Below the pieces are notes generated by a model that was not told the origin of the DNA, did not search any database, and saw nothing but the letters and a program-made list of their open reading frames with translations. A stretch of DNA of 64,000 bases from Escherichia coli (GTDB taxonomy: Bacteria; Pseudomonadota; Gammaproteobacteria; Enterobacterales; Enterobacteriaceae), in assembly GCF_044324785.1 (NCBI RefSeq), contig NZ_CP172127.1; one strand, written 5' to 3'. The stretch's first letter is position 1, and every line of letters starts with the position of its first letter. The position numbers and the translations under genes were made by a program. Positions 10,698 through 38,125 of this stretch are shown in pieces.

Positions 10698-11522
10698 ATG
10701 CAATCACTACATGGGAATTGTCTAATTGCGTACGCAAGACATAAATATATTCTCACCATGGTTAATGGTGAATATCGCTATTTTAATGGCGGTGACCTGG
10801 TTTTTGCGGATGCAAGCCAAATTCGAGTAGATAAGTGTGTTGAACATTTCATATTAGTTTCAAGGGATACGCTTTCATTATTTCTCCCGATGCTCAAGGA
10901 GGAGGCATTAAAACTTCATGCACATAAAAAAGTTCCTTCATTACTCGTTCATCACTGTACCAGAGATATTCCTGTTTTTCAGGAAGTTGCGCAACTATCG
11001 CAGAATAAGAATCTTCGCTATGCAGAAACGCTACGTAAAAGAGCATTAATCTTTGCGCTGTTATCTGTTTTTCTGGAGGATGAGCAGTTTATACCGCTAC
11101 TTCTGAACGTTTTGCAACCGAACATGCGAACACGAGTTTGTACGGTTATCAATAATAATATCGCACATGAGTGGACACTAGCCCGAATCGCCAGCGAGCT
11201 GTTGATGAGTCCAAGCCTGTTAAAGAAAAAATTGCGCGAAGAAGAGACTTCATATTCACAGTTGCTTACTGAGTGTAGAATGCAACGTGCTTTGCAACTT
11301 ATTGTTATACATGGTTTTTCAATTAAGCGAGTTGCAGTGTCCTGTGGATATCACAGCGTGTCGTATTTCATTTACGTTTTTCGAAATTATTATGGGATGA
11401 CGCCCACAGAGTATCAGGAGCGATCAGCGCAGGGATTGCCGAACCGTGACTCGGCGGCAAGTATTGTTGCACAAGGGAATTTTTACGGCACTGACCGTTC
11501 TGCGGAAGGAATAAGATTGTAG
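10698..11522 (+). CDS. gadX: AraC-family acid-resistance regulator GadX (274 aa)
   Basis: C-terminal AraC-type HTH domain; AT-rich; position downstream of gadA. Confidence 0.9.
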   Translation: MQSLHGNCLIAYARHKYILTMVNGEYRYFNGGDLVFADASQIRVDKCVEHFILVSRDTLSLFLPMLKEEALKLHAHKKVPSLLVHHCTRDIPVFQEVAQLSQNKNLRYAETLRKRALIFALLSVFLEDEQFIPLLLNVLQPNMRTRVCTVINNNIAHEWTLARIASELLMSPSLLKKKLREEETSYSQLLTECRMQRALQLIVIHGFSIKRVAVSCGYHSVSYFIYVFRNYYGMTPTEYQERSAQGLPNRDSAASIVAQGNFYGTDRSAEGIRL

Positions 11523-11538
11523 AGTTTTACTCAGAGAT

Positions 11539-11644
11539 AAAAAAAACCCGGCATAGGGGACCGGGAAGAGGATAGTCTGCCGTCTCCAGACTAATAAACC
11601 GTTATAACACTCCCTGTTGGCACGGGAAACTTTGTGCTCTCAGT
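11539..11644 (-). ncRNA. gadY: GadY small RNA, antisense to the gadX 3' end
   Basis: Minus-strand sequence actgagagcacaaagtttcccgtgccaacaggg...cccggttttttt matches recalled GadY and ends in a hairpin plus U-run; ends approximate. Confidence 0.7.
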
Positions 11645-11890
11645 AAGTTAAATATAACTTTTACTGGAAATAAGATCAGCCATTTTTTTATAAACATAAG
11701 CTATACGCTGTGCGAAAATATATTCGTGCTGCATTTACTTATTATCAATTAACTGTTATGCAAAACTACTTTGTGGATAAATTTTGGTCCTACCAAATCT
11801 GGCAGTTTTTGCGCTAAGAAACAGTCTGGCATCATTTCATTAGTATACTGAAATTGAAATAATCGCAGTAATGAAATATAAGGGATAGTC

Positions 11891-12619
11891 ATGACTCATG
11901 TCTGCTCGGTGATCCTCGTTCGTCGTTCATTTGATATTTATCATGAACAGCAAAAAATATCGTTGCACAACGAGAGTATCCTGTTACTGGATAAAAATTT
12001 GGCAGACGATTTTGCGTTTTGTTCACCGGATACGCGACGACTGGATATCGATGAGCTGACAGTTTGCCATTACTTACAAAATATTCGTCAGATACCACGC
12101 AATTTAGGGTTACATAGCAAAGACCGTCTGTTAATTAACCAGTCACCCCCCATGCCGCTGGTGACGGCGATTTTTGATAGTTTCAATGAATCAGGGGTAA
12201 ATTCACCGATACTGAGCAAAATGCTCTATCTTTCCTGTTTATCGATGTTTTCTCATAAGAAAGAACTGATCCCCTTACTTTTCAATAGTATCAGTACTGT
12301 TTCAGGAAAAGTTGAACGCCTTATTAGCTTTGATATCGCCAAACGTTGGTATCTGCGCGATATCGCGGAAAGAATGTATACCAGCGAGAGTCTCATCAAA
12401 AAAAAGTTGCAGGATGAAAATACCTGTTTCAGTAAAATATTACTCGCCTCCAGGATGTCGATGGCCAGACGATTACTCGAGTTACGTCAAATTCCTCTGC
12501 ATACTATTGCGGAAAAATGTGGATATAGCAGTACGTCGTACTTTATAAACACATTTCGACAATATTATGGTGTAACGCCACATCAGTTTGCGCAACATTC
12601 GCCAGGTACCTTTTCCTGA
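11891..12619 (+). CDS. gadW: AraC-family regulator GadW (242 aa)
   Basis: AraC-type C-terminal HTH; paralogous to gadX; conserved position. Confidence 0.9.
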   Translation: MTHVCSVILVRRSFDIYHEQQKISLHNESILLLDKNLADDFAFCSPDTRRLDIDELTVCHYLQNIRQIPRNLGLHSKDRLLINQSPPMPLVTAIFDSFNESGVNSPILSKMLYLSCLSMFSHKKELIPLLFNSISTVSGKVERLISFDIAKRWYLRDIAERMYTSESLIKKKLQDENTCFSKILLASRMSMARRLLELRQIPLHTIAEKCGYSSTSYFINTFRQYYGVTPHQFAQHSPGTFS

Positions 12620-17277: not shown

Positions 17278-17615
17278 TTTAGTCCCTGAAAATTCTTGAG
17301 AAATAACGGTTCTTTAAATTGCGCGCGAGGAGAGATATGAGGGATTTACAGACCAGCGGCATAGTGGGGTTGTCAGCCAGTAAGGTGGGATACAGGCATA
17401 GTGATCGACATGGTGAGGTCAACGACAAAAAAAATGTTGCCGTTCTGCCAACAGTTCCTGCCAGCATTCGGGCAACGAAGGGTTCTACTGGTGGATACAC
17501 ATACCAGGGGAATAAAGTCGTTTTAACCTCTCCTTTAGTAATCACCGGGGGTAATGAAATCAGCATCTGCATCCCTCGTCATGCCAGCCATCAATTTCAG
17601 TTGCTTATGTCCTGA

Positions 17616-21274: not shown

Positions 21275-21307
21275 CAGGAGTACCGGAGCGGTACTCCTGT
21301 TGGTTTT
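21275..21307 (+). terminator. Hairpin terminator between convergent yhiD and chuV
   Basis: Stem caggagtacc / ggtactcctg followed by ttggtttt. Confidence 0.6.
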
Positions 21308-22076
21308 AATGATCGAGGACGATCAGTGGTGAATGGTTGGCAGGATCTTTAAGTACGGTAATATCCGCGCCGTAGAGCATTGTCAGTGCCTGCTGTGTCA
21401 ATACATCCTGCGGTTTACCATTTGCGATAACCTTTCCTTTTTGCATTAATACAATACGGTCTGCATAACGTGCGGCAAGATTTAGATCGTGCAATACGCA
21501 GCAAACATTGAATTGCCGTTCGTGAACTAACTGGCGTAATAAACGGAACAAGTGCTGCTGATGGTGAATATCCAGCGCCGAAGTTGGTTCATCAAGAAAT
21601 AACCATTTCGGTGAGGGAGTAGGTTCCCAGAGTTGCACCAGCAGGCGCGCTAATTGCACGCGCTGTTGTTCACCACCGGATAATTGCCGATAGTCGCGGT
21701 TTGCTAACGCCTGACAGTCACATAACGCCATTATTTGTGCTGTTTCATTATCCTTATTACCAGTGCGATGCGGATGCCGCCCCATCTGGATAACTTCTTG
21801 TACGCTGAATGGAAACGCCATGTGGCTATTTTGACGCATCACGGCCCGGTGTTTCGCCAGTTCAGTAATCGACCATTTATTTAATGGCTTATTAAACAAC
21901 CGACATTCGCCGCTATCAGGTTGAAGATAGCCGGTTAACTGGCGAAGCAGCGTAGATTTTCCCGCACCATTAGGGCCGAGAATGGCAACAATTTCCCCAC
22001 CGGGAAAAGTCAGCGAGACATTATCAGTCAGGCGTCGCCCATGAAGGCTATAAACCAGATTCTGGGCGCTGATCAT
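21306..22076 (-). CDS. chuV: Hemin ABC transporter ATP-binding protein ChuV/HmuV (256 aa)
   Basis: Walker [13 protein letters not shown] signature LSGGEQQR, Walker B LFLDEP; start codon overlaps the chuU stop (ATGA) at 22073-22076. Confidence 0.9.
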
Positions 22077-23065
22077 GTGATCCTCCGGTTGCGCAGAATC
22101 AACCACATAAAATAAGGACCACCAAGCAGGCTGGTTAATAATCCCACGGGCATTTCTGCTGGCTGTACCAGCGTGCGGGCAAGCGTGTCTGCCATCAGCA
22201 ATAAACAGGCTCCGGCGAGGGCGGAGCAAGGGATTAGCCAGCGGTGATTTGCTCCGGTAGTCATGCGAATCAGATGCGGGATCACCAGGCCAATAAAGCC
22301 GATAATGCCGCTTACCGATACGGCAGCACCAACGAGCAGTGAGCTCACTAACAGTAATTGCTGGCGTTTACGCTTAACGTTCACGCCGAGGTAGTGGGCT
22401 TCTTCATCACCGAGCTGCAGTAAATTCAGCGTTCCGGCGAGACAAGTTGTTGCGATAATGGCCGGTAGGATGAATGAACTGGCAACCAATAACGTCGGCC
22501 ATTGCGCCTGTCCAAGATTGCCCATCATCCACAATGTGAGTTGTCGTAGCTGCTGCTCATCGCCGATATAGCTCAGGATGCCGATCGCTGCGCCGCACAG
22601 GGCATTGATGGCGATACCAGCGAGTAATAATTGCATCATGCTGCCATCGCGATGGCGCTGCGTGATGAGAAAAATGATGGTGCAGACCACTAAACTTCCG
22701 ACAATGGCAAACACCATTTGCTCATAGAGCACTAGCACCACTGGGAAGGAGAAGGGCAGCACAATAGCAACGCCAACCATTAATGCAGAACCGCTACTGA
22801 CGCCAAGTAATCCTGGGTCAGCCATTGGGTTGCGAAAAAGCCCCTGCATAATTACCCCGGCGGTTGCCAACGCTGCACCTACCAGCACCGCCAGCAAAAC
22901 CCGTGGTAGACGAATATTGAGCCAGATATCGCGGTATTCCTCATCAAAAAGGGCATCAAAACTGATCCTTAACGCTCCCTGACTGGCACCGAACAGCACC
23001 AGAGCGAGCAATAATAGTGATAGCCTCATAAAGACCCTGGCGGAAGAGAGTGAATCCTTGAGCAC
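22073..23065 (-). CDS. chuU: Hemin ABC transporter permease ChuU (FecCD family)
   Basis: Multi-TM FecCD/BtuC-like permease upstream of the ATPase; exact start uncertain. Confidence 0.9.
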
Positions 23066-23113
23066 GCAAAACTCCGTTACGACATTACGGCGCGGACATG
23101 CCGCGCCGGGGGA

Positions 23114-23737
23114 TCACGCCGGTTTCAGGTCCGGTTCAATCAGACTGTAGACCTGCTGGTTAAGTGCTGGCGCATTTGCCAGTTCATGGATATGTGCGGC
23201 GACATCGGTACGGTTAACAAAACCATGACACTCCTGATTTTGTATCCGTTGTGCTTTGCCCGTTGCCGCCCCATCAAGCAGACCGCCAGGGCGGAGAATG
23301 GCGTAATCAAGCTGGCTGGTTTGCAACCAGCTTTCCGCCAGCGTTTTTTCCCGTACCGCCTGACCAAACGCAGCCTTTGCTCGCTCCGATAAAAACGGCC
23401 AGCTATCGCCGCATCCCAAAGAGGTCACCAGAATCATGCGACTGATGCCGGCCTTTTCGGCCTCATCAATCACTGTTCTGTGCGCCAGATAATCCTGAGC
23501 TCCTCCCATTGTTGAGATGATAAGCGCATCCGGGCCAGCTGCGCGGCAAGCAGCCGCAACTACGCTGGCATCACAGGCGTCGCCTGTAAAAACCTGTACG
23601 CCTTGTTGCGCCAGTTTCGTGGCGGCATCGGCATGACGAACGACAGCAACGACCGGACGTTGCTCTGCCAGCGCCAGTTCAAGCGTTCTGGCACCCACAC
23701 CTTTTCCGCCTGCGCCAAAGAGTAGCCACGGCGTCAT
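23114..23737 (-). CDS. chuY: ChuY (heme-degradation-associated NAD(P)-binding reductase)
   Basis: 207-aa ORF in the chuTWXYUV operon position; start overlaps the chuX stop by 1 nt (TGATG). Confidence 0.8.
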   Translation of the reverse strand: MTPWLLFGAGGKGVGARTLELALAEQRPVVAVVRHADAATKLAQQGVQVFTGDACDASVVAAACRAAGPDALIISTMGGAQDYLAHRTVIDEAEKAGISRMILVTSLGCGDSWPFLSERAKAAFGQAVREKTLAESWLQTSQLDYAILRPGGLLDGAATGKAQRIQNQECHGFVNRTDVAAHIHELANAPALNQQVYSLIEPDLKPA

Positions 23738-37281: not shown

Positions 37282-37433
37282 ATTGCGCTCCTGATTGTTG
37301 CAGGTAGTGTCTCTCTTCGAAGCGGATAAGTCAAAAACATATATGGTTTAACGAATGTGTATGTGCAGAGGAAGGTAATAGGTGTGAATTTTGAGTTGGC
37401 TATTCATTTGAAAGGAGGTCTGAATCAGGACGT

Positions 37434-37515
37434 AAAAAAACCGACTTTGCGTCGGTTTTTTACTTCCCAGCCCTGAGTTGGTGGCTCTGGCTGGAGTGAG
37501 AGAGCTCTTATCTAA
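37434..37515 (-). ncRNA. agrA: agr-type antisense sRNA, copy 1 (agrA-like)
   Basis: Minus-strand promoter (-35 TTGCAA, 17-bp spacer, -10 TAGTAT) and hairpin plus U-run terminator; about 30 nt of the RNA is complementary to the dinQ 5' region; ends approximate. Confidence 0.55.
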
Positions 37516-37667
37516 CAGCTCAATACTATTAGCCAGTGGCTAACATTGCAAGAATTAGCGATTTCTTCAGCTGGCGAAGGGACAGTTTGCTATACATGTT
37601 GGTGAAAGAGGATTTATATACTTTCATCGGGTCGCTGCCGTACCAAGCCTTGTCCGAATCCGGACGT

Positions 37668-37750
37668 AAAAAAACCGACTTCGCGTCGGTTTTTTACTTT
37701 CCAGCCCTGAGTTGGTGGCTCTGGTTGGAGTGAGAATGCCATCATCTAAC
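37668..37750 (-). ncRNA. agrB: agr-type antisense sRNA, copy 2 (agrB-like)
   Basis: Tandem duplicate of copy 1 with its own promoter (-35 TTGCAA, -10 TAGCAT) and identical hairpin terminator; ends approximate. Confidence 0.55.
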
Positions 37751-38023: not shown

Positions 38024-38107
38024 GTGATTGATAAAGCAATCATCGTTCTTGGGGCGTTAATTGCGCTGCTGGAACTGATCCGCTTTCTGCTTCAGCTTCT
38101 GAACTGA
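38024..38107 (+). CDS. dinQ: Type I toxin DinQ (27-aa single-TM peptide, GTG start)
   Basis: Translation VIDKAIIVLGALIALLELIRFLLQLLN* matches recalled DinQ; an in-frame ATG at 37991 would give a 38-aa variant. Confidence 0.75.
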   Translation: MIDKAIIVLGALIALLELIRFLLQLLN

Positions 38108-38125
38108 TAGCGGAAACGTAACTAA

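Follow-up and report, generated by a model that had tools for sequence, protein, structure and literature searches.

The window analyzed here is a 64,000-nt stretch of Escherichia coli DNA, in which the order gadA-gadX-gadW-mdtF agrees with that of annotated genomes. Between gadX and gadW, and on the strand opposite to both, lies a segment that is almost certainly the gadY small RNA gene of the E. coli acid fitness island, with gadX upstream and gadW downstream of it; gadA is located further upstream and mdtF downstream on the minus strand. The coordinates of the locus are collected in Table 1. The gadX ORF scored 594 bits against the GadX equivalog model (cutoff 500) and ends with a stop codon at 11520-11522; the same interval is annotated as gadX in E. 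coli strain N3, the closest genome, which shares 99.8% identity over 601 nt. The gadW ORF had NCBIfam matches only to AraC-family models, below the equivalog cutoffs, and it starts 246 nt from the start of gadY.

Table 1. Features of the gadX-gadY-gadW locus, in window coordinates.
Feature	Position	Strand	Basis
gadX, 274 aa, AraC-family acid-resistance activator; its mRNA is the GadY cis target	10698-11522	+	NCBIfam NF007432 equivalog
Spacer from gadX stop to GadY 3' end, 16 nt, not conserved	11523-11538	+	
gadY small regulatory RNA, 106 nt	11539-11644	-	Rfam, identity to b4452, invariant block
gadY transcription start (ACUGAGAG...) and 3' end in the U-run	11644; 11539-11546	-	
Target site on the gadX-gadW transcript, reported cleavage region	11539-11644	+	Complementarity from sequence; cleavage from literature
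GadY Rho-independent terminator (predicted), 6-bp GC-rich hairpin (11547-11565) and U8 (11539-11546)	11539-11565	-	
GadY stem-loop 2 (nt 52-72), 7-bp stem, loop GAGACGG	11573-11593	-	MFE and Rfam; invariant in all sequences compared
GadY 5' domain (nt 1-47), composite stem-loop of three stacked helices	11598-11644	-	MFE equal to Rfam consensus
Likely gadY -10 element, TATATT (-12 to -7)	11651-11656	-	Sequence inspection; putative function
ATGGCTGA (-39 to -32), fitting the AppY motif ATGSCWGM	11676-11683	-	
gadW, 242 aa, AraC-family regulator	11891-12619	+	ORF; gadW in the K-12 and N3 annotations

A scan of the whole window with Rfam 15 identified a single GadY match (RF00122) at 11534-11647 on the minus strand, with a score of 147.1 bits (gathering score 45 bits; E = 4.3e-31), which covers the model at full length (positions 1-114 of 114). 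The reference copy in K-12 MG1655 is the ncRNA gadY (b4452), which occupies 106 nt at NC_000913.3 3664864-3664969. When the two were aligned, all 106 nucleotides were identical, the annotated ends of b4452 coincided with the boundaries of the window copy, and the distance from the gadX stop codon to the GadY 3' end was 16 nt in both. Such a match is far beyond chance, and the gene is an already known one, found in its canonical form and at its usual place. It has been known since the early 2000s and was formerly named IS183; isoforms of 105, 90, and 59 nt are said to have been described by Opdyke in 2004.

The original prediction had placed GadY at exactly this position, on the strand opposite gadX and gadW within their intergenic region, and had named divergence from K-12 gadY as the finding that would speak against it; the mapped coordinates and the alignment, which contained no divergence within the RNA, confirmed the placement. 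It had also described the RNA as antisense to the 3' end of gadX. This description holds for the gadX 3' UTR and the gadX-gadW spacer, but not for the coding end of gadX, with which GadY has no overlap, as it begins 17 nt past the stop codon. Over 421 aligned bases, the differences between K-12 and the window were a G/A at 11519, synonymous, in the final sense codon of gadX; a G/C at 11536, located 3 nt past the 3' end of GadY; and, beside the gadW start, one substitution and one single-base indel. The 369-nt gadX-gadW spacer differed from K-12 outside gadY by one substitution and one indel, plus the one base just 3' of gadY. No ORF of at least 20 aa was found inside the gadY transcript, and a 31-aa ORF at 11602-11697 on the minus strand begins upstream of the gadY transcription start.

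Other parts of the window also contained RNA families. A full-length match to the ES205 small RNA (RF02754) was found at 17427-17498 on the minus strand (105 bits, cutoff 86), ending in a hairpin and U8. It is located between mdtE and gadE, where strain N3 has a "hypothetical protein" CDS running across it on the opposite strand (17337-17615, plus), and both E. whittamii and E. coli E69 carry the same RNA in their loci. The Rfam AgrB antisense RNA family was matched twice in tandem, at 37432-37515 and 37666-37749 on the minus strand (104.5 and 99.7 bits). Both copies are located between arsR and dinQ, a type I toxin gene (38037-38120, plus, in strain N3), and presumably represent the agrA/agrB pair of the dinQ locus. 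Additionally, yhiD and dctR of the acid fitness island are separated by the inserted chu haem-uptake cluster (approximately 21306-30257), and the window therefore derives from a non-K-12 lineage. The RNA thermometer of the shuA/chuA 5' UTR (RF02597) was identified at 27170-27201 on the plus strand, immediately upstream of chuA (60.1 bits, cutoff 58).

The DNA upstream of gadY, including its promoter region, is essentially identical to that of K-12. The likely -10 element has the same sequence as in K-12 and falls inside a run conserved across Escherichia (11648-11658). The octamer at -39 to -32 fits the AppY motif, which has been reported to overlap the gadY -35 region (PMC10057817). The motif is loose, with 35 occurrences in the window versus approximately 16 expected, so that what counts is where the match is located and not that it occurs. 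Owing to its weak -35, the gadY promoter was missed by a sigma-70 consensus scan of the window, which is unsurprising for a promoter reported as RpoS- and activator-dependent.

Among RefSeq genomes of E. coli annotated with PGAP, no sampled record contained any feature at the position of gadY. This is a systematic annotation gap and not a biological absence, as the curated K-12 record includes b4452. The lack of a feature here in the PGAP annotations of nearly all E. coli genomes could also be read as the mark of a silent relic, whose sequence is kept but which is unexpressed or non-functional in this strain. That reading is improbable in the extreme: hardly any difference from K-12, where expression is documented, exists in the promoter region or anywhere in the spacer, the conservation of gadY far above its flanks implies ongoing purifying selection, and the missing annotation reflects the pipeline, given that the K-12 record annotates the gene. 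By its identity to the K-12 copy, gadY is probably transcribed in this strain.

The minimum free energy fold of the 106-nt RNA consists of three hairpins and equals the Rfam consensus structure. The 5' domain holds one GGA (nt 32-34), and in stem-loop 2 a GGA straddles the junction of stem and loop (nt 58-60). The fold was not significantly more stable than those of shuffled sequences (z = -0.73, with 42 of 200 shuffles as good), and the same was observed for the opposite strand (z = -0.49, not significant). A covariation test on six Escherichia sequences detected no compensatory change in any of the 28 base pairs; 26 of the pairs never vary in these sequences, and the other two vary only by cells that are unpaired. 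The only two substitutions found in other Escherichia break pairs of the 5' domain and are uncompensated, and covariation therefore speaks neither for nor against the structure. The three-hairpin structure is thus a prediction drawn only from the Rfam model and thermodynamics.

On the minus strand, the last hairpin reads CCCGGUCCCCUAUGCCGGG (11565-11547) and is followed by U8 (11546-11539), in accordance with the original claim of a hairpin and U-run just downstream of the gadX stop. The same claim held that gadX shares this element with GadY as a bidirectional terminator. In that case, the hairpin at 11547-11565 would be an intrinsic terminator ending both GadY and a convergent gadX mRNA, and the overlap of the two RNAs would be confined to a few terminal bases of a short gadX 3' UTR. 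The hairpin does form on both strands (-8.8 kcal/mol on the minus strand and -7.9 kcal/mol on the plus strand), it is located only 24 nt past the gadX stop, and sharing of a terminator between an sRNA and a convergent gene exists, as at sraG/rpsO (PMC5029454). However, a T-tract was found on one strand only. All 8 nt after the stem are T on the minus strand, whereas the gadX-sense strand has A8 before the hairpin and AAGAGGAU after it, with one T in eight. The plus-strand hairpin is also slightly weaker because a U-G pair becomes an A-C mismatch in the sense-strand stem. A terminator scan called one terminator-like site in the gadX-gadW spacer, namely the GadY hairpin, and on the minus strand only.

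This one-sided design is shared by all five Escherichia genomes examined, where the layout of A-run, hairpin, and a gadX-sense tail reading AAGAGGAT (1/8 T) is kept, while the distance from the gadX stop to the A-run ranges from 15 to 29 nt in other Escherichia and is filled with unrelated sequence. Furthermore, according to the literature, gadX and gadW are co-transcribed and GadY pairs over its full extent, with the sites of cleavage located inside the pairing region. A literature search for "bidirectional terminator" together with GadY returned no such claim for the gadX/gadY locus; in the papers mentioning GadY, the term was applied only to a synthetic terminator and to sraG/rpsO. Full-length pairing of GadY with the gadX-gadW mRNA implies that gadX transcripts must read through the hairpin. 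A terminator acting in both directions is accordingly very unlikely, and this part of the original prediction is not supported. The hairpin and U8 instead appear to form a unidirectional terminator that would act on the GadY strand only. It should be recorded as one-directional, with the gadX 3' end regarded as a probable product of processing rather than of termination.

The 106 nt of GadY were at least 99% identical in 5,412 of 5,426 complete E. coli genomes. In contrast, the adjoining 246-nt gadY-gadW spacer reached at least 99% identity in only 2,566 genomes and 95-99% in 2,828. Among the 14 complete E. coli genomes without GadY is strain KFu015 (NZ_CP147130.1, near position 250860), in which the match begins only near the gadW end of the spacer (approximately window position 11829) and continues from there, and in which gadX and gadY appear to be deleted.

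Beyond E. coli, a pattern with 18 specified bases, GGAGACGGCNGNCNNTCCTCTT, was searched in one genome per species of approximately 100,000 species, with exact matches required, so that diverged copies could be missed. Eleven loci were obtained. Only the five from Escherichia were recognized by Rfam as GadY, namely those of E. whittamii, Escherichia sp. E1V33, Escherichia sp. MOD1-EC7003, and two divergent "E. coli" lineages. The remaining six, from Mesorhizobium, Paenibacillus, and metagenome-assembled genomes, were not GadY according to Rfam, and approximately nine chance matches had been estimated for such a search (2 x 2.98e11 / 4^18). In all five Escherichia loci, GadY was found in the same arrangement beside gadX and gadW and on the opposite strand.

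Identity to the window differed greatly between GadY and its neighbors. In E. whittamii and E1V33, for example, GadY was 98.1% identical, versus 80-81% for gadX, 76-78% for gadW, and 75-77% for the gadY-gadW spacer. Similarly, strain E69 shared 80% identity in gadX and 99% in GadY, and over the divergent Escherichia genomes as a whole GadY remained 98-100% identical. The differences within the transcript were two substitutions shared by E. whittamii and E1V33 (G31U and U47C) and a single A inserted in strain E69. The probability of observing at most two differences in 106 nt ranged from 4e-11 to 4e-4, depending on the flank chosen for the expected rate, in a comparison that includes only three or four independent lineages.

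An alignment of five Escherichia genomes contained three invariant runs, 11538-11597, 11599-11613, and 11615-11644, and the resulting block of 11538-11644 departs from the annotated transcript by no more than one base at either end. The comparative data alone thus recover both ends of the transcript independently. On the gadX side, the short spacer next to the GadY 3' end had an identity of only 0.48 in this alignment, and the plus-strand region 11420-11537, which includes the gadX 3' end, was the least conserved part of the locus, with 41-68% nucleotide identity. On the other side, the 55 nt nearest the promoter were approximately 90% identical. The C-terminal 35 or so codons of gadX, which adjoin the invariant block, encode peptides that are unrelated across Escherichia, and the gadX ORFs range from 266 to 274 aa. 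In Escherichia sp. MOD1-EC7003 (locus L013, 1224-1901), gadX aligns only from nt 580 and is joined directly to the gadA-gadX spacer, so that the first 579 nt (the 5' two-thirds) of the gene appear to have been deleted; all 106 nt of GadY are intact in this genome.

Since the conservation of gadY lies far above that of its flanks, ongoing purifying selection on the gene is indicated. The complementarity of a cis-antisense RNA survives any substitution, and the invariance of loops and linkers therefore implies other constraints on GadY. We infer that its near-invariance, bounded by the transcript, reflects protein binding, trans pairing, or a function of both strands. The pattern fits constraints beyond cis pairing, such as those from Hfq, CsrA, and trans targets. 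Such a sharply delimited island of conservation, coinciding with the transcript and surrounded by a rapidly evolving regulatory locus, gives a clear comparative signal that suggests constraints beyond antisense pairing. It is the only aspect of gadY here that goes slightly beyond routine, and it agrees with what has recently been reported on CsrA binding and trans targets.

The same observations could be carried further, to a GadY that is above all a trans-acting or protein-titrating RNA. Its Hfq-dependent pairing with unlinked mRNAs or its role as a CsrA sponge would then fix the sequence, while the action in cis on gadX-gadW would rank second. The intact GadY beside the shortened gadX of MOD1-EC7003 would be readily accommodated, as would the invariant loops and linkers. 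Reports of high-affinity CsrA binding (PMC5694010), of CsrA titration affecting pgaABCD and biofilm (PMC10057817), of many Hfq-linked mRNA partners (PMC11230228), and of sdiA as a trans target (PMC11300174) point in this direction. However, the same DNA encodes the processing site of the gadX-gadW mRNA, and constraints on two strands could explain the conservation equally well. GadY was also found only beside gadX and gadW in every genome where it was detected, as expected of a cis regulator, the lineages compared number approximately three to four, and the gadX deletion in MOD1-EC7003 could be recent. A secondary place for the cis effect is possible but is regarded with some doubt, and the same tentative standing is given to a dominant selected function independent of gadX, for example titration of CsrA or Hfq or a trans pairing in which nearly the entire molecule takes part.

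The role that had been attributed to the RNA, in acid resistance and in the accumulation of gadX mRNA, agrees with the literature (PMC10057817, PMC2887942), and a mechanism for the window copy can be proposed from studies of the K-12 RNA. RpoS would direct the synthesis of GadY as the cells enter stationary phase, and the RNA would bind Hfq; RpoS dependence of gadY expression and binding by Hfq are stated in PMC11230228 and PMC11300174, respectively. The gadX-gadW co-transcript would read through the hairpin, and GadY would pair with its spacer over the full length of the RNA. The sense-strand RNA opposite gadY is perfectly complementary to it, and pairing along the whole length with the gadX-gadW intergenic mRNA is described in PMC5029454, PMC5694010, and PMC3919570. 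RNase III, together with at least one further nuclease, would then cleave the duplex. According to PMC5029454, PMC5694010, and PMC2887942, the monocistronic gadX and gadW mRNAs arise by GadY-directed cleavage, for which RNase III and another endoribonuclease are named in PMC5029454, PMC3919570, and PMC2887942; in one secondary source, the cleavage is ascribed to RNase E in the text and to RNase III in a figure legend.

The separate gadX and gadW mRNAs would subsequently accumulate to higher levels, and the expression of glutamate-dependent acid resistance genes that depend on GadX and GadW would be raised. PMC5029454 and PMC2887942 describe the cleavage products as more stable and as accumulating, which results in activation. 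Besides this cis role, GadY may bind CsrA with high affinity and act on trans targets; PMC5694010 places the CsrA binding at regions with GGA motifs. As a finding, the gadY of this window matters little, as the copy is identical to a characterized RNA, while a scan that recovers it fills a real gap in annotation.

Compared with known systems, the gene is closest to GadY of K-12 (RF00122, b4452), with which it shares all 106 nt, position, strand, the 16-nt distance to gadX, the promoter DNA, the predicted three-hairpin fold, and the U8 terminator. No difference occurs within the RNA; the loci differ in the G-for-C 3 nt past the GadY 3' end and the synonymous change in the last gadX sense codon, and the hosts differ in the chu cluster inserted in the acid fitness island. 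A likeness also exists to SraG at rpsO-pnp, where an sRNA is located between two same-strand genes, is encoded on the opposite strand and overlaps their transcript, and where processing involves RNase III and a further nuclease (PMC5029454). However, the sraG/rpsO terminator is described as bidirectional, whereas a U-tract flanks the GadY hairpin on just one side and the gadX transcript would continue into gadW. The pairs hok/sok, tisB/istR, zorO/orzO, and lambda OOP/cII-O are similar in that an extended or perfect duplex serves as an RNase III substrate, with residual cleavage in the absence of RNase III (PMC3919570). In these systems, cleavage inactivates the target, while for GadY the products of cleavage are reported to accumulate, with activation as the outcome.
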